From assembly GCA_029560465.1 (NCBI GenBank), contig JAKQKX010000016.1:206221-270220 (forward strand): a stretch of 64,000 nucleotides of DNA. The letters run 5' to 3'. This DNA is from Candidatus Omnitrophota bacterium. Lineage in GTDB: Bacteria; Omnitrophota; Gorgyraeia; Zapsychrales; JANLHA01. The notes under the pieces are model-generated. The model saw only the letters and a program-made list of their open reading frames with translations. It did no database searches and had not been told where the DNA came from. Positions 1 to 10,473 of this stretch are shown here, piece after piece. Position 1 is the first letter of the stretch. Every line of letters begins with the position of its first letter. A program made the translations under genes and the position numbers.

Positions 1-2278
1 CGGCCCGTGGCAGTATGGTCAATGCGGCTATCCCGGGTATTATGACGACACTTATCTTGTGGATTTCCGGGAGCCGACCAATCCTCTTTGCAGCCCGATT
101 TTTGGGGACGTGTTCGGCCCGAATAAAGATGAATGCTGCAATTATCCGGAGCCGAGCGTGCAGTGCGGCGGCACGTGGGATGGCGTGGATTATCCCGAAA
201 CCACGTGTATTTATGGCGCAAGTAAACCGGCCAATCCTAATTGCCCGGATTGTTTTGGCGGGGTCGAAGAAATGTGCGATTACTGCTGCGACTATGAGGT
301 CACCAGCGCCCATTGCGGGGACGGCGTGACTTATCCGGTGACAACGCTGTTTGAGACGTTGACACCTGCTAATCCCAGCTGTGATGTTCTTGTTGACCAG
401 GCGACGCCTGACGGCTGCTGCGGATACGGGGGATTCACCCGGATTTGCGGTTATGACGGCCGTCCCCTGACAACGTCTGTCCAGGTTATGACGCCGACGC
501 AGAATTTCGCGGAATGCCCCACGGTCGTGCAGAATGAAATCGCGAATGACCCGTTCTGCTGTGGTTACGGCGGCTTCCAGGCACCGCAATGCGGATATTC
601 CGGCTGGTATCCGGGTCATACGCTGCTGGAAGTGAACGAACCGAGCAATGCGTACCCGGGGTGTGACCCGCTGTTTCAGAATGTCGTCCCGAATGAATAT
701 ACCTGTTGCGCTTATGGATCGGCGACATCGGCCTGCGGGGACGGCGTGACGTACCCGACGAGTTCCTGGGTTACCACCCAGATATCGGCCACGGGGTGCG
801 ACCCGATCGTGACCGAACAGGCGAATCATCAGAGCTGCTGCGATTACCCGGCGTCCCCGACGACGGAATGCGGGGCTTTGAGCTATCCTATCACGTATCT
901 GGTTTCTTATTTTGAGTCGCCCACCAATCCTACCTGCGCGGTGCAGATTGTGGGGGTCCCGGCTTTTGATGAGGTATGCTGCCAGTATGGATCCCTGCAG
1001 CAAAGCTGCGGGGACGGGGTTATGTTCCCGGTCACGGATTACGTGAGCTGGCAGGAACCGGGGATTGTCCATGCGTCCTGCCCGATCAAAGTGATCAGCC
1101 AGATTCACAATGATAACACTTGCTGCGGATACCCGCCGACGTATACCCTGATGTGCGGATACGCGCCTTTAGGGTATCCGGAAACAACCCGGGTGGAAAT
1201 TAAAGAGCCGACTTTGACCGAATGTCCAGTCAGGTCCCGGAATCCGTATCCGTACCACGACACGTGCTGTGAGTATACGACGAACTATTATTGTGGATAC
1301 GGGGCCCCTTTAAACGTTCCGGCTACGCATTATGTTGCGGTGAAGGAACCCGGCGGGGGCAAAAGCTGCCCGGTCGTTAAGGTGAGCCAGACGAATTACG
1401 CGGAAATTTGCTGCGGGTACACGACCGGCACAACCGAGGATTTGGGCTGTGGGGCCTCCTATGACGGGCTGACCTGCAACTATGACCGAAGGTTGATCGT
1501 GACCACTCCGGTTAACACTAATTGTCCTGTGCAGAAGACGTGTACGTATGCCGCCTCGTGCACGACATGTTCAGCTGGAGAAACGCTGGCCTGTCCTCCG
1601 GTCAACGGCTGCCCGTATCAGCGCGTGTGCGTGGGCGGTGTCTGGAGCGCTTGCCAGCAGGCCAACCCGGTCTGCACGCCAGGAGAAGTCGTGAATTGCG
1701 AGCCGAACCCTGACGGGTTTATTTCCAGGAAAACGTGTAATATTTGCGGAACAGGCTGGGGGCCGTGCTGGTGCGACCCGCAGGAAACCCAGATATGCAC
1801 GACGTCATCTTCGTGCCCGGGGATCGGGACCTGTTCCGGCGGGGGATGGACGGCTTGTGAGCAGAGCAATCCGACCTGCGGGCCCGGCAGCACCCGGGAC
1901 TGTACTCTGGGCGATGGGAACCCGGGAGTGGAAGAGTGCGTCTCCTGCGGGAATGCCTATGAGGCGTGCCGGTGCCTTCCTGGGGTGGTGTATTGTTATA
2001 TTGATGGTGTCTTAGGGACGCAGAGCTGTAATACCTCAACCGGCCTTTACGGGACATGCGTTTGTATCAGCGGATCAACAAAGACCTGTACGGCCGCGAC
2101 CGGTTGCACTTCGGGGGTCGTGTATTGTAACAATGCGACCGGCGCTTTTGACGGGGCGTGCGAGCTTCCTTATAGTGACTGTACCCCTGGCGCAACCCGT
2201 TCCTGTTTGAAATATTTTATCATCCCCGGGACGGAGTCGTGTACGGACTGCGGGAATTGGAGCGGCATTTGTTTGTAA
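1..2278 (+). CDS. Cysteine-rich tandem-repeat protein (5-prime partial; reading frame open to window edge)
   Basis: Frame 2 is open from nt 2 (GPWQYGQCGYPGYYDD...), so the tracked GTG at 59 is internal. There are about 10 copies of a ~50-55 aa unit: CC-x-Y-x(5-9)-CG-x(3-5)-YP ... P-x-NP-x-C. The C-terminal ~230 aa is a different Cys-dense module (CPPVNGCPYQRVC, CWCDPQ, CRCLPG). The protein has more than 85 Cys. Confidence 0.6.
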   Translation, partial: GPWQYGQCGYPGYYDDTYLVDFREPTNPLCSPIFGDVFGPNKDECCNYPEPSVQCGGTWDGVDYPETTCIYGASKPANPNCPDCFGGVEEMCDYCCDYEVTSAHCGDGVTYPVTTLFETLTPANPSCDVLVDQATPDGCCGYGGFTRICGYDGRPLTTSVQVMTPTQNFAECPTVVQNEIANDPFCCGYGGFQAPQCGYSGWYPGHTLLEVNEPSNAYPGCDPLFQNVVPNEYTCCAYGSATSACGDGVTYPTSSWVTTQISATGCDPIVTEQANHQSCCDYPASPTTECGALSYPITYLVSYFESPTNPTCAVQIVGVPAFDEVCCQYGSLQQSCGDGVMFPVTDYVSWQEPGIVHASCPIKVISQIHNDNTCCGYPPTYTLMCGYAPLGYPETTRVEIKEPTLTECPVRSRNPYPYHDTCCEYTTNYYCGYGAPLNVPATHYVAVKEPGGGKSCPVVKVSQTNYAEICCGYTTGTTEDLGCGASYDGLTCNYDRRLIVTTPVNTNCPVQKTCTYAASCTTCSAGETLACPPVNGCPYQRVCVGGVWSACQQANPVCTPGEVVNCEPNPDGFISRKTCNICGTGWGPCWCDPQETQICTTSSSCPGIGTCSGGGWTACEQSNPTCGPGSTRDCTLGDGNPGVEECVSCGNAYEACRCLPGVVYCYIDGVLGTQSCNTSTGLYGTCVCISGSTKTCTAATGCTSGVVYCNNATGAFDGACELPYSDCTPGATRSCLKYFIIPGTESCTDCGNWSGICL

Positions 2279-2295
2279 GTTGATGTGATCCTATT

Positions 2296-2358
2296 CATGC
2301 GCCCCGCGGCGTTCTCATCGTGTTGTCAGGCATCATCGCGGGGCGCATGAACTTTTTG
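2296..2358 (+). terminator. Rho-independent terminator-like hairpin after Cys-rich gene
   Basis: A perfect 13-bp inverted repeat, CATGCGCCCCGCG (2296-2308) / CGCGGGGCGCATG (2337-2349), is followed by the T-run aacTTTTTgggg. Confidence 0.5.
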
Positions 2359-2504: not shown

Positions 2505-2909
2505 ATGACAGAAGAGTCTAATTTTTATTTTCATATTGCGACAACATCCGGCGTCCCGATTTACCGGCAGATTATCGATCAGGTGAAAACACTAGCTGCT
2601 TTCGGCCGGGTCAGCCCCGGCGATTTCCTGCCTTCTGTGCGGCAGGTGGCCCAGGAACTTGAGATTAATCCGATGACGGTTTCTAAAGCGTATTCCTGGC
2701 TTGAGAAGGAGGGGGTCCTTGAATCTGTCCGGGGGCAGGGGATGCGGGTTAAAGAAGACAGGATTTCAAAAAAGGACATGAAAGAACGTAAAGACGCTCT
2801 GCTTCCTCTTTTAAAGCAGGTCGTTATCCAGGCCAGCCAACTATCTCTTGAGCCGGAGACGGTTATGGCTCTGCTCGAACGTTTATGGAAGGAGACTCCT
2901 CATGAATGA
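2505..2909 (+). CDS. GntR-family (YtrA-like short) transcriptional regulator
   Basis: N-terminal wHTH (IYRQIIDQVK...GDFLPSVRQVAQELEINPMTVSKAYSWLEKEGVL) with a short C-terminal tail. It is immediately upstream of an ABC transporter, as is typical for YtrA-type GntR regulators. Confidence 0.7.
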   Translation: MTEESNFYFHIATTSGVPIYRQIIDQVKTLAAFGRVSPGDFLPSVRQVAQELEINPMTVSKAYSWLEKEGVLESVRGQGMRVKEDRISKKDMKERKDALLPLLKQVVIQASQLSLEPETVMALLERLWKETPHE

Positions 2910-3780
2910 TCCCGTGATCCAGGCGCAGCGTGTCACCAAGCGGTATAAGGCCAAAACGATCCTCAATGATTTGTTTTTAGCGGTGCCCCGGGGCTCGGTG
3001 TTCGGGCTCTTGGGCAAGAACGGCGCCGGGAAGACAACACTCATCAAATGTGTGTTAGGGCTTGTGTATCCTCAGGACGGGCTGATATCGGTTTTGGGTG
3101 ATAACCCTAGGAATTTTCTGGAGAGGACCAAAGAACGGATCGGTTACGTCCCGCAGTCTGACCGGCCTTATCCCTGGCTGACTGTCCGGCAACTTGTCAC
3201 GTACACGGCATCTTTTTATCCGCTTTGGAATATGGCTTTGGTTGACAGGCTGTTGAAGGAATGGGAACTGGAGGAGGAGGACAAGGTCGGGCTTCTCTCC
3301 GAGGGGCAGGCACAGAAGCTTTCCATTATTCTCGCTCTGGGGCATGAGCCTGAATTGCTGATTTTTGATGAGCCGGTGGCGAGTTTGGACCCGGCGGCGC
3401 GGCGGAAGTTTTTGAAAACGATTTTAGACATTGTTGCGGACCGTGAATGCACGATATTCTTTTCCACGCATATTACGAGCGATTTGGAACGCGTGGCAGA
3501 CCGGGTTGCCCTGCTTAAAAACGGGACGATCGATTTCTGCGGAGAACTGGATGTCCTGAAAGATGAAGTAAAGCGTTTAAGGATTGTCTCTCCCGTCCCG
3601 TTGCCCCGGGATATTCCCGTAAACGGCGTCCTGCGCTGCGAGCTGTCTCAATATGAGGCGGTCCTGTCCGTGCGTGGGTTTCATGCCGGGATCAAATCTC
3701 AAATGGAGCAGCGCCTTAACGCCAGGATTGAAGTGGAAGACTTAAACCTGGAAGAAATATTCCTGGAGCTGCACGCATGA
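2902..3780 (+). CDS. ABC transporter ATP-binding protein
   Basis: Walker A GKNGAGKTT, signature LSEGQAQKL, Walker B LLIFDEP. The start is taken at internal ATG (MNDPVIQ), which overlaps the GntR stop. The tracked start at 2848 lies inside the GntR gene. Confidence 0.8.
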   Translation: MNDPVIQAQRVTKRYKAKTILNDLFLAVPRGSVFGLLGKNGAGKTTLIKCVLGLVYPQDGLISVLGDNPRNFLERTKERIGYVPQSDRPYPWLTVRQLVTYTASFYPLWNMALVDRLLKEWELEEEDKVGLLSEGQAQKLSIILALGHEPELLIFDEPVASLDPAARRKFLKTILDIVADRECTIFFSTHITSDLERVADRVALLKNGTIDFCGELDVLKDEVKRLRIVSPVPLPRDIPVNGVLRCELSQYEAVLSVRGFHAGIKSQMEQRLNARIEVEDLNLEEIFLELHA

Positions 3781-5165
3781 AAACCCGTTATTGTCAGATC
3801 GTCCTTCTTTATTTCCGGTACCTGCCTTACCGGATCCTGGCGCTGAGTCTTCTTGGGACGGCCCTGCTTTCAAGATTTTCCTTAGAACACAGACTTGTGG
3901 CCATCGCGGATGATTTCTTCACGTTTTTTGTCGTTGTCAGCGTGTGGCTGGCTTTTACCGCCGGAGTGCTTTTAAAACGGCAGATGGCCCAGCACCGGGC
4001 TTCGCTCCTGCCGCGCTACCGGCTCCCGCACATTATAGTCCCTTTCGGATTTTTCGCGTTTTTTCTCATCGTTTTTTGTTACTGGCTGGTCAGCCTCTAC
4101 CCGATCATTATTGTGAACCCGGGTGCGATTTGGTCGGTGTTTGTTTTATGCGCCCTTGTGATCTCAGTGGTCATATGGGTGGGTTACCTGTCGATTAACA
4201 TGCTTGTTTACCTGTCTTATTTCTCCATGCTTTTGGTCTCCTGGCAGGCGTATAACCTTGTTGTTTTTTTGACGGAACATACGGCCTGGCAATTTATCGT
4301 GGGTTGCGGGAGCGCCGTGTTGATGTTGGCCTTGGCCAGGAGGGGGATGTTTCTTAAAGAAGAATCCTTTGAGTACGGGTATATTATGATGTGGCCCCAA
4401 AAAGAGTTTTTGCATAATCAAATCAAAGCGGGCGAACTGTACACCCGCAGTGTGCGCGCTTTCCGGAAACGTTTTGGGATGCCAGCTGTGGTCCTAACGC
4501 TTCCGGGATATCCTCGGCGTGCTGCGCTTTGGCGCCGGGCGTTCCACTGGCACCGGATTGATTTTGCTGAATTAAAGGGCATATGGATGGCCTTGCTGGT
4601 CATGACACCGGTGTACCTCGCCAGCATCAGCCGACTGCCTCTCTGGCATGGATTTTTAAAAGACCCGTACAATAATTTCTTGTTGTATACTGTCGCCCCG
4701 GTTTTGCTTGTGCTGTGTGCGAACCACCGTAATATGACGACGTGGGGTTATGACGTGCTGAAGCCTGTCCGCAAGGGAGATTTTGTGCAGGAGCAGGGGG
4801 TGGCCCTGGTCGCAGGGCTGGGCTTTTATTGGTTCCTGTTCGTTTTTTACCTGGTTTTAACCCCGCACCTGGTCCTTAAGCCGGCTGAGTTGGCCCTGCC
4901 GCGCTTTTGGGGGTATCTTCTGTTGACGGGAAGTTTCGCGTTGTTGACGTTGTCCTGGGTTATTTTTATGAGCTGTTATTCATCGCGGCCGTGGTTTGTC
5001 ATTATCCACGGGGGTATCCTGTGCATGCTCGCCCAGCTGTTATTCATGGTCAGCGTACGCTTTTCCGGGATGATCAGCCTGGCAGTCAGCGTGGCCTGTT
5101 GGGTGGGCATATATGTATTTTTAAAGAGCGGTTATCGGAAATGGTGTGAAGCCGAATTCAACTAG
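3777..5165 (+). CDS. Polytopic membrane protein, putative permease partner of ABC ATPase
   Basis: ATGA overlap with the ATPase stop. It has more than 10 hydrophobic helices and no recognisable soluble domain. Confidence 0.45.
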   Translation: MKTRYCQIVLLYFRYLPYRILALSLLGTALLSRFSLEHRLVAIADDFFTFFVVVSVWLAFTAGVLLKRQMAQHRASLLPRYRLPHIIVPFGFFAFFLIVFCYWLVSLYPIIIVNPGAIWSVFVLCALVISVVIWVGYLSINMLVYLSYFSMLLVSWQAYNLVVFLTEHTAWQFIVGCGSAVLMLALARRGMFLKEESFEYGYIMMWPQKEFLHNQIKAGELYTRSVRAFRKRFGMPAVVLTLPGYPRRAALWRRAFHWHRIDFAELKGIWMALLVMTPVYLASISRLPLWHGFLKDPYNNFLLYTVAPVLLVLCANHRNMTTWGYDVLKPVRKGDFVQEQGVALVAGLGFYWFLFVFYLVLTPHLVLKPAELALPRFWGYLLLTGSFALLTLSWVIFMSCYSSRPWFVIIHGGILCMLAQLLFMVSVRFSGMISLAVSVACWVGIYVFLKSGYRKWCEAEFN

Positions 5166-5207
5166 GGCGGGCTTGAGGAAAAATTTAATGAGAAAGGAGG
5201 GGTTCCT

Positions 5208-5417
5208 ATGACACCGGAAGCCATTCGAAGTTTATGTAAAGCGGCTGCTTTGGTTTCGGCTGTGGCAGGCGCTTACGGCATGATGTTATGTGTGCCGTTC
5301 ATCGCCGGCACGCAGGTGGTTTTGATTGCCGCCGCCAGCTTGCCGTTTATCGCCGGAGCCGTCTTGGTAGCCGGAGGGTTGGTCAGTTACACGCTGCTCA
5401 TTCGCAAAGAAGCATAA
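5208..5417 (+). CDS. Small membrane protein (2 TM)
   Basis: 69 aa, mostly hydrophobic, with a GGAGG RBS upstream. Confidence 0.35.
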   Translation: MTPEAIRSLCKAAALVSAVAGAYGMMLCVPFIAGTQVVLIAAASLPFIAGAVLVAGGLVSYTLLIRKEA

Positions 5418-5516
5418 TGTTTTTCAACAGGCGGCCGCCTGGTTTTTTGAAGCGGATGACCCGTGAATAAGAATGGTTTTGGCGGGGGCTAACGGGGAGC
5501 CAGAAGGAGGGGGGCG

Positions 5517-6314
5517 TTGCCGAAGGTCCAGGAATATTTTAAACTTGCGATGCATTTAGCCGGCTCCGCAGCGTTCGGGTGCGTCGCGGCGATCGCTTGG
5601 CATGAAGCCGGCCACATTATTTTTATCCTGGGTTGCGGGGGAGAGGTGACGGGAATCCACGTGCAGCCTTTTACCCGGTCGGCGGTGACATATAACATCC
5701 CGGCCACTGCGTCGTCCTGGATTGCGGCCTCGGGTATTTTAGCGGGGGTAACGGGCGGGGCGGTCCTGTTGGTGCCCTTGAGGGCAACCCGGAATCCTTA
5801 TGCGCTGCCGCTGGTGATGGCGGGGGTCGCGTCCTGGCTCGGGAACGGCTTATATCTCGTTTTAGGGAGCACCATTTTGAAGGGGTTCGGTGATCCGGGC
5901 CGGATGATCGCGCAGGGTTTCCCGGTCGGCGGGCTTTTTACGGCGGGGGTTTGTTGTGTGGCCTTGGGCGGCCTGGCGTTTATGCGGTTCCTTCCCCTGA
6001 CGGGTATTTCCCCGGACATGGCCATTTTGCCGCGGACGGGGATATTGCTCGGCGGTGTTTTCCCTTACCTGGCCGGGATCATTATTTATAATGGCATTCA
6101 TGATTTCCCTCGGCTCATGCGTTATTGCGTTTTTATGGCGTGGATACTGGGCCTGGCCTTATTGGGGAGCTGGATGGCGGGGCATCCGGCGGCGCGCTTG
6201 TTTAGAGGCGCGTATCCTGTTTTATCTGTCCGTTGGCCTCATGCCTGGACAGCGGCCGGCCTTGGGATTGGCGTTATTGCTGCGGCGCTTTATGCGGCGG
6301 GCGCCGCTGTTTAA
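5517..6314 (+). CDS. Integral membrane protein with HExxH motif (putative intramembrane metalloprotease-like)
   Basis: TTG start preceded by AGGAGG. WHEAGH is embedded in a hydrophobic segment. It has multiple Gly-rich TM helices. Confidence 0.35.
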   Translation: MPKVQEYFKLAMHLAGSAAFGCVAAIAWHEAGHIIFILGCGGEVTGIHVQPFTRSAVTYNIPATASSWIAASGILAGVTGGAVLLVPLRATRNPYALPLVMAGVASWLGNGLYLVLGSTILKGFGDPGRMIAQGFPVGGLFTAGVCCVALGGLAFMRFLPLTGISPDMAILPRTGILLGGVFPYLAGIIIYNGIHDFPRLMRYCVFMAWILGLALLGSWMAGHPAARLFRGAYPVLSVRWPHAWTAAGLGIGVIAAALYAAGAAV

Positions 6315-6359
6315 GGCAGTGTTGGCAGGGATGCTCCCGGTTCAAGAAGGATACTTTTT

Positions 6360-7049
6360 ATGCACGCGTTTTTCTCTTTTATAGCGGCGGTGTTGCCCGC
6401 CTTACTTTTGGTGAGGTATTTTTACAAGGCCAACCCTGCGCCGAAAAGGTTTATTGTTAAGGTGTTTCTCCTCGGAGTTATCTATACACTGCCGGTTTAT
6501 ATCCTGGAAGTGATCCTGGCTCGGTATAATATGTTTCCCCGCTGGTCATTTGTCCTTTATTATTTCTTTGAAGCCTTTATCGTCGCAGGATTATGCGAGG
6601 AATATATCAAATTAAGGATTATTAAAAAATATGTTTACGGAACCGTTTTTTTTCAGGGGGAGCGGGACGGCATTATTTTTACTGTGGTGGCCAGCATGGG
6701 GTTTGCCTGCATGGAGAACATCCTTTATGTGGTCAATCATTCTTGGAATATGGCGCTGGCCCGGGGCTTCACGGCGGTGCCCATGCATGCCGTTTGCTCT
6801 GGGGTGATGGGCTATTCTTTGGGGAAGGCCAAGCGTTCTCAGATATTAAACCGCCTTGCGGAAGAAAAAAAATATATAAATCAAGGGTTGTGGGAGGCGA
6901 TTTTGATCCACGGGTGTTATGATTTTTTTCTTTTTTTATCGCCGATATTAGGGTCTGTTTTCGCGATGTTCACGATCCCGCTTGTTTTAGGATATTACCT
7001 GGAACTCAGGAATAAGATGAAAAGGATGGGGCCGGAGGCCCGAATATAA
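6360..7049 (+). CDS. PrsW-family intramembrane protease-like protein
   Basis: EE-x-x-K (GLCEEYIKLR), FACMENILY and two His-containing TM motifs (HAVCSG, LIHGCYDFFLF) match the PrsW/CPBP-type signature. It has ~6 TM. Confidence 0.5.
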   Translation: MHAFFSFIAAVLPALLLVRYFYKANPAPKRFIVKVFLLGVIYTLPVYILEVILARYNMFPRWSFVLYYFFEAFIVAGLCEEYIKLRIIKKYVYGTVFFQGERDGIIFTVVASMGFACMENILYVVNHSWNMALARGFTAVPMHAVCSGVMGYSLGKAKRSQILNRLAEEKKYINQGLWEAILIHGCYDFFLFLSPILGSVFAMFTIPLVLGYYLELRNKMKRMGPEARI

Positions 7050-7064: not shown

Positions 7065-7508
7065 TTGACAAATTTTATCTACAACTTGTTCGCTTACCCA
7101 TCGGCCTGGCTGACCGCTGTGTTTCATGACGCCGCGATTGCCTCCGCTAACGGGGGGGAGCTCTGGATCCTGCTCGTTCCCCGCCCGATTCATGTGACGC
7201 CGGAGTGCTGCGGGTTCAATTTTTTCGTTTTGCTCGGTGGTTATACGCTGTTGTTTATTTTACGCCGTTACCCTAGGCCCTGCGCCGGGCCTGCAGTTCT
7301 GCTGGCGCTTCCCGTGGTCTATGTGACAACCATTTGCGCCAACGCCGTACGGATGACATGTGCGTATCATGTGGCCTGTTTAAGCCGGACGCTGTTCCCC
7401 GCGTGTTTTCAGCCGGTGATTCACATGGCGGTGGGGATCGCCGTTTTTTTAAGTGCCCTTATCTTGAGCCATTTATTGATCGAAAGGATCGGCCTCTATG
7501 GAAAATGA
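7065..7508 (+). CDS. Minimal exosortase/archaeosortase-family protein (XrtN-like)
   Basis: TTG start with AAGGAAGG RBS. Candidate catalytic Cys (PECCGFNFF), Asn-x-x-Arg motif (ICANAVRMT) ~50 aa downstream, and a following His (AYHVAC). It has 4-5 TM and is only 147 aa. Confidence 0.45.
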   Translation: MTNFIYNLFAYPSAWLTAVFHDAAIASANGGELWILLVPRPIHVTPECCGFNFFVLLGGYTLLFILRRYPRPCAGPAVLLALPVVYVTTICANAVRMTCAYHVACLSRTLFPACFQPVIHMAVGIAVFLSALILSHLLIERIGLYGK

Positions 7509-10473
7509 CGCGCGGGAATCCGTTTTGCCCGGAATCTTAAAAAGGACCACGATGCTTTTCTGGGTTTTTATCCTGCCCCAAAGCGTGCTGTTAGCGCTCA
7601 ATTGTTTTTCCTTCTGGATTATCCGGGAGGAAATCCTCCCGCAAAATCTTATGGCGTCCTCGGTGTTGTTCGGCAGCGAAGTGTTCCTGATCGTGTTCCT
7701 TGGGGCTTTGTTTTATTCCTGGAAACGGGGCGGGCGCCGCGAGATCCCATGGACATGGAATTGGTTTTTTCTTTTGTTCCACATCGCCTATTTGTGGTTT
7801 GCGACGTCCGAGATCCCGCATATTATTCCCGGTGCTGTGGAATCCTGGGTTCTTGACCTGGGGCAGGTGATCCTGCAGCAATACACGTTTATGATGCCGG
7901 GATTATTTTATGCGGCGATGCGGCTGGCGTGTTTTGAAACCCGGTTGGACCGGGGGGTTGATATTGGGCGCAGCTTGCTGGTGGCGGTGGCGGCGCCCGC
8001 ATTATGGTATACGGCCATGCTGGGGTTGTCAACGTGCGTCCGGTGGACGTGGGGCTGGTTTCCGCCGGTTGTGGGGATTATTTTTTTCGTCGGGACCACC
8101 CTGGTCACGCTTGTTGCGCTGATCCGGCTGAGCGTGTTCTTTTACGGTTGGTATCAGAAGCGGGACCCTTGGATTCACAACACGGTTATCGCGCTGGTCG
8201 CAGTCGCCGGCCCGTTGGCGGGTTTGCTTTTGAACGCGCATATCCCTTTTCCGGCTGATTTTCAGGCCCCAGGGATATACATTTTAGCGATCTTAAACGG
8301 GCTTGTCTTGCTTGCCCCCTCGCTTTGGGGTGTCCGCGGCAAGGGCTGGCTTCTGTTTTTGCGCGCCTTGGCATATCCTTTTACCGTTTATTTCTTCCTG
8401 GTTTTTCTCCCCTTTCTGCCTTTATCGCTTTTAGCGATTTGCGCTCTGGGCCTGGGTTTTCTTTTCCTGATTCCGTTAACCTTGTTTTTGATTCATACGA
8501 AGATTCTTGTTGAAGACGCCCGGATGTGGTCGGCCCGGCGGGGACGGGCATCGGCTGCGGTTTTGCTTTGCTCCGCCTGTCTGGTTTTGCCGGGTTATTT
8601 GATCCTGGAAGCGGCGTGGGATAAGTCCGCCATTCAGCAGGCGCTGGATTACGTGTATTCTGCCGATTATGAACAACCGCAGCATTTTCAGGGTTCCCTT
8701 TATACGGTCAAGAAAGTTTTAGTCAAGATGAAGCGGGTTAAAGCCGGGGCCCGGATGCCGTATCTTTCCGCTTTTTATAATAAAGTCGTTTTTAACGGCA
8801 TGGTTTTGCCTGATGACAAAATCGAATATATGTACCGGCTTTTTACAGGGGAAGCTGTGCCGGATGTGCAGGCTCCGGCGGCTTTTTTCGGCGGGAGAGG
8901 TCGTTTGCGGTCTTCCCGGGGCGGGGGACAAGGCCGCCGGATACAGCGTAACCGCGAGGTTATATTGTCTTCGTTCAAGAGGTTCAGTGAGGATAAGGAG
9001 TTTACCACCGTCACAAGATTACAGTTGTATATGCAGAACACCGGCGGGGATGATGCGGCGGAATTTTTTCAGGAATGCGAGATCCCCGCTGGTGTTCTGA
9101 TTTCGGATTTCCGCCTGCTTGTGAACAAAGAAGTCGTGCGGGGGCAACTGTTTGAAAAAGAAACCGCCACGTGGGTTTATCATATGATTCGGGACTGGAC
9201 GCGCCGTGATCCGGGGCTCCTTGTTTATGTTTCGCCCACCCGGGTGGAGATGAGTGTCTTCCCGTTTCAGAAAAACGAAATGCGTTACGCCGAATTGGAA
9301 TTGACGTATCCCCGGGGGATGGCCCCGGTCATCAAGATCGGCCAATATCCGATATTTTTGAAAGATAGCCCCGTGCACAATGGGGCGATGCCGATGGCCT
9401 TGACGGGCGGCGATCCCGGCGGGGAGGATTATGCTTTTGTCCTGACGCATCCCGCGTATTCTTCCCTGTTCTTCAGGCGGAAGCCTTACCTGCATTTTAT
9501 CCTTGATTTTTCCGCCGGGTCGGAATTGTCTGCGGATGCCGCCCTGCCGAGGATTCTTGAGGCGGCTTCTGTGTTCCCTGAGGCGGACCTGGTCCATGTC
9601 AGCGCGGTGAATTTTGAAGTTGAGCTCTTGAGTCGGGATTATATTGCTGTCCGCGATAAGGCGCTGATCCGGGCGGCGATAGACGCGGCCCGTCTTCCCC
9701 GCCGGGGGAGCGTGGACCTGTCCCGGGCGATGAAACGGATTTTGTCGCTTTATCAGGCCAAGCGGGCAGCCGGGGTTCCCGAGACATGGCAGCGGTATCC
9801 GGTTTTTGTTGTTATCTCGGATAGGGCAGACCATCTCCTAGGGCCGGACGATATGGCGTTTTATCAGGACCTGGTTCCGGAACAGACCCGGTACTATATT
9901 TCGACCCTGGACCAGGGTTTAAAAGATTACCCCCTTTTCCTTCCCAGCGCGGTTGCCACGGAACAGGTCGTGGTGATTAAACACGGCCCGCACATTTCTT
10001 GGGTCCCGGTTTCCGCGGACCCGCAATGGCGGTTGGCCGCAAGCCTTGGACAAAATCTGAAGGCTGTTTATGAAGTGTATTTCCCCGGGGAAGACATGTT
10101 TGCTCCTTTACAGTCCATGCCCCTCCCTTCCCAGTCGGATTACGCGCAGGATATGGGGCTTTTTATCCGTAACGCCCGTATGATGAAGAACCCCGCCAGG
10201 TTGGCGTCGGGGCTGACGGCGCTGGTGCGGGACAGTAAGTCCAGGCGGGTCATGATCCCATCGACGTCCTATATTGTCGTTGAGCGCAGCTCTCAGTGGA
10301 AAACCTTGACTAAGAAAGAGGGGCAGAAAATGGCCAGCGCGCCGGGGTTGGAATTTGAAGAGGATTTTGATACTCCGGCGCCTTCGATGTGGCTGGTTGG
10401 AGGACTGTTTCTCCTGTGGTTGTGCCGGCGGCAGCGAAGACCGGGCCGTTTCCTGGCCCCGTCTGTCCGTTAG
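7498..10473 (+). CDS. Large polytopic membrane protein with VIT-like and vWA-like domains and a C-terminal sorting-signal-like tail
   Basis: Overlaps the upstream gene by 11 nt. The N-terminal ~330 aa has more than 10 TM. The central part is VIT-like (ECEIPAGVLISDFRLLVNKEVVRGQLFEKETATWVY), then vWA-like with a near-MIDAS motif LDFSAGSE. The C-terminus is PAPSMWLVGGLFLLWLCRRQRRPGR, i.e. motif, TM helix, then an Arg cluster. Confidence 0.55.
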   Translation: MENDARESVLPGILKRTTMLFWVFILPQSVLLALNCFSFWIIREEILPQNLMASSVLFGSEVFLIVFLGALFYSWKRGGRREIPWTWNWFFLLFHIAYLWFATSEIPHIIPGAVESWVLDLGQVILQQYTFMMPGLFYAAMRLACFETRLDRGVDIGRSLLVAVAAPALWYTAMLGLSTCVRWTWGWFPPVVGIIFFVGTTLVTLVALIRLSVFFYGWYQKRDPWIHNTVIALVAVAGPLAGLLLNAHIPFPADFQAPGIYILAILNGLVLLAPSLWGVRGKGWLLFLRALAYPFTVYFFLVFLPFLPLSLLAICALGLGFLFLIPLTLFLIHTKILVEDARMWSARRGRASAAVLLCSACLVLPGYLILEAAWDKSAIQQALDYVYSADYEQPQHFQGSLYTVKKVLVKMKRVKAGARMPYLSAFYNKVVFNGMVLPDDKIEYMYRLFTGEAVPDVQAPAAFFGGRGRLRSSRGGGQGRRIQRNREVILSSFKRFSEDKEFTTVTRLQLYMQNTGGDDAAEFFQECEIPAGVLISDFRLLVNKEVVRGQLFEKETATWVYHMIRDWTRRDPGLLVYVSPTRVEMSVFPFQKNEMRYAELELTYPRGMAPVIKIGQYPIFLKDSPVHNGAMPMALTGGDPGGEDYAFVLTHPAYSSLFFRRKPYLHFILDFSAGSELSADAALPRILEAASVFPEADLVHVSAVNFEVELLSRDYIAVRDKALIRAAIDAARLPRRGSVDLSRAMKRILSLYQAKRAAGVPETWQRYPVFVVISDRADHLLGPDDMAFYQDLVPEQTRYYISTLDQGLKDYPLFLPSAVATEQVVVIKHGPHISWVPVSADPQWRLAASLGQNLKAVYEVYFPGEDMFAPLQSMPLPSQSDYAQDMGLFIRNARMMKNPARLASGLTALVRDSKSRRVMIPSTSYIVVERSSQWKTLTKKEGQKMASAPGLEFEEDFDTPAPSMWLVGGLFLLWLCRRQRRPGRFLAPSVR

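Follow-up and report, generated by a model that had tools for sequence, protein, structure and literature searches.

The Omnitrophota are widespread, uncultured bacteria considered either to prey on other cells or to depend on them. They are mostly ultra-small and host-dependent, and large surface proteins have been proposed to act as their adhesins (PMC10066038). The debate over how they attach has centred on giant proteins and type IV pili (PMC10066038; bioRxiv 10.1101/2023.11.21.568195). Cysteines go unmentioned in PMC10066038 and in two preprints on giant Omnitrophota proteins, where the word 'disulfide' occurs solely in one reference title. Here we describe a secreted, cysteine-rich repeat protein from a Candidatus Omnitrophota genome (GenBank assembly GCA_029560465.1), the gene for which runs into the 5′ edge of a 64,000-nucleotide stretch of contig JAKQKX010000016.1 (positions 206,221–270,220 of the forward strand; hereafter 'the window'). 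This gene and a tail-fibre-like gene directly upstream of it form a conserved two-gene cassette, and we tentatively favour the reading that the Cys-rich protein is the disulfide-stapled stalk-and-tip component of a predicted surface fibre or adhesin.

The open reading frame (ORF) occupies frame 2 of the plus strand, extending from nt 2 to 2275 with a stop codon at 2276–2278, and its 5′ end is open at the window edge. The two remaining plus-strand frames across it are interrupted by many stops. This 3′ portion (2–2278, plus strand) comprises 758 codons and the stop of a gene for a 1,270-residue secreted protein, as established from its translation and from its 99% identity, along the whole window part, to the full-length product P0001; the first 512 codons precede the window edge. 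The window part contains 82 cysteines in 758 residues (10.8%). Among ORFs of at least 100 residues in the window no second one exceeds ∼7% cysteine, and those that approach this value are short and probably not genes. An initial sequence-only reading of the window had described a giant cysteine-rich tandem-repeat protein, open to the window edge, with two types of module and more than 85 cysteines. The reading frame, hidden Markov model (HMM) matches and orthologues bear out a real, conserved ORF with both module types, but the cysteine count was too high for the window part, and at 1,270 residues the full protein does not merit the word 'giant'.

Longer contigs of the same organism were found by exact look-up of the neighbouring GntR protein, and the full-length product was found by protein search. 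The complete gene is located at positions 5962–9774 of contig L001 and is also present in L002–L004. Its product, P0001, contains 124 cysteines and is composed of a signal peptide, an N-terminal domain of ∼110 residues (N-domain), a Cys-rich linker, ∼17 tandem 47-residue units named here for their CC dipeptide, and three 10-Cys modules. The N-domain is conserved and carries three 'IRxxHxxELR' motifs, and the linker begins CCGDGxC…NCPxDC. The Sec-type signal peptide (…FLAGGPRAGA|QTWTD) has a hydrophobic N-terminus and an AxA-type site, and the mature protein behind it begins with a conserved (Q)(T)W(T/S)D in the homologues inspected. The extracellular location anticipated from the cysteines alone is therefore supported, as far as export is concerned, by the signal peptide that the upstream sequence yields. 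The predicted isoelectric point of the protein is acidic (∼4.1), and the mature cysteine count is even in six of eight family members.

The CC-repeat array (nt 2–1558, plus strand), delimited by HMM matches and an AlphaFold model, consists of one unit cut by the window edge (residues 1–44) followed by 10 units of 44–50 residues, with four cysteines per unit. The CC dipeptides are positioned at residues 45, 95, 139, 186, 235, 279, 326, 374, 422 and 470, and the final (tenth) unit is degenerate. The units follow the skeleton CC-x8-12-CG-x20-25-C-x11-15, in which only the cysteines and the glycine after the third cysteine are invariant; 'YP' is found in six of the 10 window units and 'NPxC' in three. 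The earlier description of ∼10 four-cysteine units with an invariant CC...CG...C framework thus holds, but the units are shorter than the 50–55 residues then proposed, and 'YP' and 'NPxC' do not belong to the invariant set. A unit HMM gave 11 matches on the window protein (E = 1e-7 to 1e-16) and none in 200 shuffles of the same protein, although it was trained on family units including those of P0001, so that the score is partly obtained by construction. The pairwise identity among units is 32% (26% without the cysteines) and no tandem repeat was found at the DNA level in the array, which argues that it is old and diverged, with no recent expansion or assembly artefact.

All of the cysteine columns are invariant in orthologues ranging from 76% down to 32% identity. 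Family members contain between 6 and 20 CC motifs and retain the N-terminal and C-terminal parts. Identity to distant orthologues is 30% in the repeats, 43% in the N-domain and 47–50% in the C-terminal modules.

The C-terminal region (residues 520–758; nt 1559–2275, plus strand) was defined by a module HMM, a regular expression and an AlphaFold model. It spans 239 residues and contains three modules of 66–70 residues (positions 523–591, 591–658 and 688–758), each with 10 cysteines, together with a 29-residue Cys-containing insert (659–687) between the second and third. The module is ∼68 residues long with the spacing C-x7-C-x5-C-x5-C-x7-C-x6-C-x7-C-x8-12-C-x2-CG-x5-C; the three copies have no CC pairs and one CxxCG each. 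A separate C-terminal module type of ∼230 residues had been recognized from the sequence, and that distinction is retained, with the measured length and the internal threefold organization now added. Its description as EGF/granulin-like is not. No EGF-like match was found in Pfam at E ≤ 1 for the window protein or full-length homologues, and 10 cysteines in ∼68 residues differ from the six in ∼40 of EGF. Granulin (PF00396; 12 cysteines, four CC pairs) likewise gave no Pfam match, and the CC units have one CC and four cysteines per 47 residues.

AlphaFold2 models were obtained for both repeat types. The repeat model covers four CC units (window residues 173–385) and is based on an alignment of orthologous and paralogous four-unit fragments, with the cysteine columns in register and a coverage of 30–54 rows. 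It has a mean pLDDT of 87.8, and each unit contains one helical turn at the CC and three β-strands. The C-terminal model (239 residues, 86-row alignment; pLDDT 92.8) is composed entirely of β-hairpins, with two hairpin sub-domains per module. Foldseek returned no match at E ≤ 1e-3 for either model against the PDB or for the repeat model against viral structures. The best PDB match to the repeat model has E = 0.05 and TM 0.15, and among viral structures it comes closest to a siphovirus tail fibre protein (E = 5e-3, TM 0.24). For the C-terminal model, the best-probability PDB matches are fibronectin type I pairs (E = 0.014–0.13, target-normalized TM 0.26–0.37, 76–152 columns); these include a weak match to 2cg6 (probability 0.96, E = 0.13, TM 0.37, rmsd 4.9 over 76 columns) and one to 9a3y_B (probability 0.92). 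It is therefore to fibronectin type I pairs, in place of EGF or granulin, that the region bears a weak structural resemblance. By sequence, no fibronectin type I match was found in Pfam (fn1) or in the PDB profile search.

Searches of Pfam (window protein and full-length homologues, E ≤ 1) and NCBIfam identified no domain of any kind, PHROGs gave no match to the Cys-rich protein at E ≤ 0.1, and nothing significant was found among PDB sequences when they were searched with the single protein or with profiles built for the N-domain and the C-terminal modules. These results agree with the initial impression that the repeats belong to no nameable family. No earlier description of the family was found in the literature. 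Both repeat types and the N-terminal domain are undescribed in the libraries and literature searched, while the kind of molecule they probably build, a repeat-stalk surface protein, is familiar.

The family is small. Six proteins were recovered from 5.8 billion clusters by a word-index search; the same search with the N-terminal 171 residues returned no matches and missed P0001 itself, reflecting the sensitivity limit of the tool. An exhaustive profile search of 1.84 billion representative proteins, with the window region aligned to five homologues as the query, returned 119 proteins at E ≤ 1e-3. About 15 of these clusters carry CC units (P0002–P0013, P0049 and P0066), the longer ones with the same overall architecture, and every named CC-unit protein is from Omnitrophota. 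The carrier genomes are labelled Candidatus Omnitrophota, apart from one labelled uncultured Planctomycetales, and the isolate name Go_SlDig suggests digester sludge.

Approximately 100 further proteins from the profile search match the 10-Cys module only. Most are 100–240 residues long, with one N-terminal membrane helix and one C-terminal module. The module is found at the outer end of these small, membrane-anchored proteins, and all seven of the named ones are from Candidatus Micrarchaeota. A few other matches belong to proteins of myxobacterial style, in which a shorter repeat resembles the second half of the module. No Pfam family covers the region shared by the profile-search relatives.

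The only conserved neighbour of the Cys-rich gene is located upstream, just outside the window. In six of six divergent loci (L001, L014, L010, L012, L015 and L016, representing four different genomic contexts), a gene for a secreted tail-fibre-like partner of ∼290 residues (282–333) lies directly upstream on the same strand, separated by an intergenic gap of 14–52 bp (24 bp in L001, where the partner occupies positions 5077–5934). Six partner/Cys-rich pairs are present on shared contigs. Invariant elements of the partner include TYYPAPxGxY…LVPR, two cysteines, GIGTxxPxxxL motifs and a C-terminal GYYAxYAP. It matches the PHROG tail-fibre families phrog_9942 and phrog_18345 with E-values of 2e-8 to 7e-4.

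A profile search with the partner returned 315 relatives, many of which are larger Omnitrophota proteins containing Peptidase_S74 and/or YadA_head; some are named 'tail fiber domain-containing protein' or, by their source, trimeric autotransporter adhesin. All eight relatives that were fetched (P0197, P0169, P0187, P0229, P0246, P0233, P0163 and P0199; several of them named Omnitrophota) share the N-terminal module of the partner, which spans ∼110 residues and consists of a signal peptide followed by LTLTTYYPAPFGAYDRLRLVPR, two cysteines and a VGIGT motif. Their C-terminal parts vary, including tail-fibre, YadA-head, Peptidase_S74 and even intein-like segments. The shared module looks like a lineage-specific fibre-base or anchoring module, apparently unnamed. 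Locus L016 (2572–10029) has a distinct arrangement in which two Cys-rich genes flank the partner, in the order 727-residue gene, 303-residue tail-fibre-like partner and 1,342-residue P0007. The 727-residue product equals the short paralogue P0009 in length. The CC units of P0007 contain six cysteines in ∼52 residues, compared with four in 47.

Several properties lead us to interpret the Cys-rich protein, with less than even confidence, as contributing the stalk and tip of a surface fibre or adhesin. It is exported, its cysteines are invariant, the models of both repeat types are confident and β-rich, the unit number varies between better-conserved ends, the tail-fibre-like neighbour is obligatory, and the 10-Cys module is positioned outward of a membrane anchor in other proteins. 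A signal peptide and a stalk of tandem repeats of varying number, by which fibrillar adhesins are recognized, are both found here, with 6–20 CC motifs per protein. The fold matches to a viral tail fibre protein and to fibronectin type I pairs add weak hints in the same direction. In the mechanism that we propose, each CC unit would contain two disulfides and each C-terminal module five, and these bonds would staple a rigid, protease-resistant, β-rich rod that forms the stalk. The conserved C-terminal modules would constitute the distal binding tip, and the N-terminal domain would attach the rod either to the fibre protein encoded with it or to the envelope. The partner and the Cys-rich protein together would then make up a surface fibre or adhesin, distinct from a pilus, by which the cell is held to other cells or to surfaces. 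This interpretation agrees with the published view that host-dependent Omnitrophota use large surface proteins for contact (PMC10066038).

A number of observations weigh against the surface fibre. The disulfides are a prediction from the invariant cysteine columns, the four cysteines per unit and 10 per module and the mostly even totals. Neither a known adhesive domain (Pfam, NCBIfam) nor, the signal peptide apart, a motif at either end that would anchor the protein in the cell wall or outer membrane was detected, and no signal for secretion across the outer membrane was recognized. The phylum is taken to be diderm, so the protein could stay in the periplasm. The source habitats are anaerobic digesters, which are reducing, and exposed disulfides may be unstable there. 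Every fold match lies above E = 1e-3, the alignment behind the repeat model was built partly from the protein's own paralogous units, and the choice of which end is distal is a guess.

The same features could be accommodated, though we consider this unlikely, if the protein were a structural component of the envelope, cross-linked by disulfides in the wall or a periplasmic matrix, by analogy with planctomycetal YTV proteins and chlamydial OmcB. A signal peptide unaccompanied by an outer-membrane export signal or anchor would fit such a role, as would the very high and invariant cysteine content, and Cys-rich YTV proteins are documented in Planctomycetes walls (PMC8567305). However, there is no Pfam match to YTV, Chlam_OMP6 or DUF11 (E ≤ 1), the combination of distinct conserved ends with a variable unit number suits a fibre better than a matrix, and the conserved neighbour is tail-fibre-like. 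The family is also rare (∼15 clusters among 1.84 billion proteins), whereas a wall component in general use across the phylum would be expected to be common. Were this nonetheless an ordinary envelope protein, the value of the present results would be limited to two new domain definitions.

It is more doubtful that the cysteines bind metals (zinc, iron or a chalcophile metal) or are redox-active, which would make the protein an extracytoplasmic metal-binding or electron-handling scaffold. The anaerobic habitat and the odd cysteine counts in two of eight mature proteins would be compatible with this role, and the second half of the module (C-x-PG...C...CxxCG) weakly matches zinc ribbons in the PDB (Elf1, E = 0.03; CPxCG zinc finger, E = 0.36). 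None of these matches (E = 0.03–0.4) is significant, however, and each module has a single CxxCG knuckle in place of the two CxxC-type knuckles of a zinc ribbon or CPxCG zinc finger. The even number of cysteines per unit (four) and per module (10) also argues against this explanation, as do the lack of His/Asp ligand patterns and haem motifs and the presence of 10% cysteine across regular β-structure, which is unlike metallothioneins.

The tail-fibre resemblance raises the question of a prophage or tailocin remnant, with the partner as receptor-binding tail fibre and the Cys-rich protein as an accessory; we give this explanation little credence. The partner matches PHROG tail-fibre families and has relatives with the Peptidase_S74 chaperone domain, and a tail fibre protein heads the viral fold matches of the repeat model, yet no other phage gene is found within 10 kb in the six loci, where the neighbours are housekeeping genes such as those for serine hydroxymethyltransferase (SHMT), NrdR, the CCA-adding enzyme, pyrimidine synthesis and aconitase. 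Sec signal peptides, normally missing from virion proteins, are present on both the partner and the Cys-rich protein, and the latter has no PHROG match.

On its 3′ side, the Cys-rich gene is followed by a terminator-like hairpin (2294–2358, plus strand) that consists of a perfect, G+C-rich 15-bp stem (2294–2308 pairing with 2338–2352), a long loop and a T5 tract (2354–2358). The predicted stability is −36.5 kcal/mol (z = −3.84), and none of 200 shuffles is equally stable. The hairpin was overlooked by a consensus terminator scan because of its long loop. The strong terminator previously proposed at this position is thus matched by a stable stem and T-tract, and a terminator function is plausible from the sequence but unproven. 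Next comes a run of plus-strand genes (2505–7049) encoding a GntR regulator, an ABC ATPase, a 462-residue membrane protein with eight helices and no family match, a 69-residue two-helix protein, a 265-residue five-helix protein and a PrsW intramembrane protease (6360–7049). The GntR gene has its own promoter-like site. In L001 the gene for the 462-residue membrane protein is called as two genes (192 and 259 residues), pointing to a frameshift in that contig or to a difference in its assembly.

Beyond PrsW lies a gene for an exosortase-family protein (7065–7508, plus strand; 147 residues), which scores 27.4 bits with TIGR04178 (cutoff 23) and is XrtK-like (E = 5e-7). It overlaps by 11 nt the start of a gene for an MSEP-CTERM sorting-domain protein (7498–10473, plus strand; TIGR04286, 385 bits), the 991-residue product of which has nine N-terminal membrane helices and a weak VIT domain. 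The two genes have the look of an exosortase encoded together with its dedicated target, here in an Omnitrophota genome.

The sequence-only reading had placed the Cys-rich gene directly upstream of a membrane or sorting locus and had raised the possibility that homologues cluster with exosortase-type loci elsewhere. The exosortase-family and MSEP-CTERM genes are real, but their link to the Cys-rich protein does not hold. The C-terminus of the protein, ...TESCTDCGNWSGICL (...CGNWSGICL), contains no sorting motif, hydrophobic helix or NCBIfam CTERM match. In L014, a 76%-identical genome, four genes are inserted before the downstream locus, the first two encoding an ECF sigma factor and a zf-HC2 anti-sigma-like protein. 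Neither the XrtK-like nor the MSEP-CTERM gene accompanies the homologues in L010, L012, L015 and L016. The genes downstream are instead a radical SAM gene and a ferredoxin in L010, TP_methylase and glmS on the opposite strand in L012 and L015, and an outer-membrane channel in L016. With no sorting tail, an insertion in L014 and unrelated downstream genes in four of the six divergent loci, the sorting locus appears to be unlinked to the Cys-rich gene, and the conserved association is the one with the upstream partner. It is scarcely credible, and largely refuted, that the neighbouring exosortase (XrtK/MSEP-CTERM) or PrsW machinery has the Cys-rich protein as its substrate: the exosortase-family, MSEP-CTERM and PrsW genes all lie downstream in the window, but the protein carries neither a sorting motif nor a membrane helix at its C-terminus, the homologues in L010, L012, L015 and L016 do not have the locus next to them and in L014 it is separated, the terminator-like hairpin and a GntR gene with a promoter-like site intervene, and the MSEP-CTERM protein is itself, by its family description, what we take to be the expected target of that exosortase. 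The remaining probability falls to some explanation outside those considered here.

Two other gene types were observed near homologous cassettes. A DsbA/thioredoxin-family protein is encoded four genes from the cassette in L012 (16731–17597) and L015 (13441–14316), on the minus strand, with CPFS (CxxS) in place of the usual CxxC. No homologue of this protein is encoded in the window, an absence that is uninformative because the sample is only 64 kb. One gene for a B12-binding radical SAM protein, accompanied by the ferredoxin, comes after the Cys-rich homologue in L010 (14010–15894), and another lies in the downstream locus of L014 (18826–20268). We rejected a radical-SAM link, in which the Cys-rich protein would be a thioether-crosslinked substrate, since the window lacks such a gene, as do the stretches seen of L012, L015 and L016; its presence near homologues is probably coincidental.

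The most unexpected result is the sharing of the tip module with Micrarchaeota. In two Micrarchaeota loci (L017:2971–4345 and L018:3022–4390), the gene for a small, anchored 10-Cys-module protein is positioned directly after that for an NfeD/Peptidase_S49 membrane protease, with CarS upstream. This position is that of stomatin in other archaea, and the adjacency may be a clue to the role of the module. Micrarchaeota are DPANN archaea that live attached to host cells, and the Omnitrophota reportedly include one predator of archaea. The 10-Cys module could conceivably be a cross-domain cell-contact module, present in three copies at the tip of the Omnitrophota fibre and in one copy on a short membrane stalk in Micrarchaeota. 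It might have arrived by ancient transfer between ultra-small, host-attached lineages, or the tip might recognize the same archaeal surface structure during prey or host recognition. We regard this proposal as speculative and rather improbable.

Beyond the shared module, the present analysis contributes two new, confidently foldable Cys-rich domain families and a conserved two-gene cassette, a tail-fibre-like protein with a Cys-rich rod, as a tractable candidate for a surface fibre. At 1,270 residues the protein is small enough to express, and it therefore offers an easier route to tests of cell–cell attachment than proteins of 30,000–80,000 residues.

Several described systems can be compared with the two proteins. 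CysRRep (Daugavet et al. 2026) differs from both repeat types, as its pattern Cx6-9Cx5-7Cx8-11Cx7-8CC fits neither the CC unit (CC-x8-12-C-x20-25-C) nor the module (C-x7-C-x5-C-x5-C-x7-C...). The myxobacterial-type repeats (CxPGxxxxCxCxxGxxGxQxCxxDGxxWxxCxC, ∼35 residues; P0015, P0020, P0022 and P0048) align with the second half of the C-terminal module, but are single half-modules with other cysteine spacing; they too have no Pfam name. Fibronectin type I modules form strings of small, disulfide-stapled β-hairpin modules, an arrangement that the C-terminal model may resemble, with four cysteines in ∼45 residues as opposed to 10 in ∼68. The Micrarchaeota proteins share the 10-Cys, ∼68-residue module itself (25–39% identity, E down to 1e-8), although at 100–240 residues, with one N-terminal membrane helix, they lack CC repeats and the N-domain, belong to another domain of life and have a different gene context, following the NfeD/S49 protease.

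Within the bacteria, YTV proteins and OmcB are likewise exported and Cys-rich, come from the same PVC superphylum and are thought to act via disulfides (PMC8567305), but have no sequence match to the Cys-rich protein, in which the repeat and architecture are different. The Omnitrophota tail-fibre/YadA-head-like family resembles the partner only: the signal peptide, TYYPAPFGxYxxLRLVPR, the two cysteines and VGIGTxxPxxxL are common to both, whereas Peptidase_S74 and YadA_head are missing from the partner and the Cys-rich protein has no sequence similarity to the family. The remaining comparison is with fibrillar stalk-and-tip adhesins. Although no LPXTG, autotransporter barrel, T9SS CTD or PEP-CTERM is detectable, the adhesin role here is a predicted one, and the proposed stalk is built from a new 47-residue four-Cys unit instead of an Ig-like or other known stalk domain, the Cys-rich protein shares with these adhesins a signal peptide, a long array of small, β-rich tandem repeats that vary in number, and better-conserved ends.

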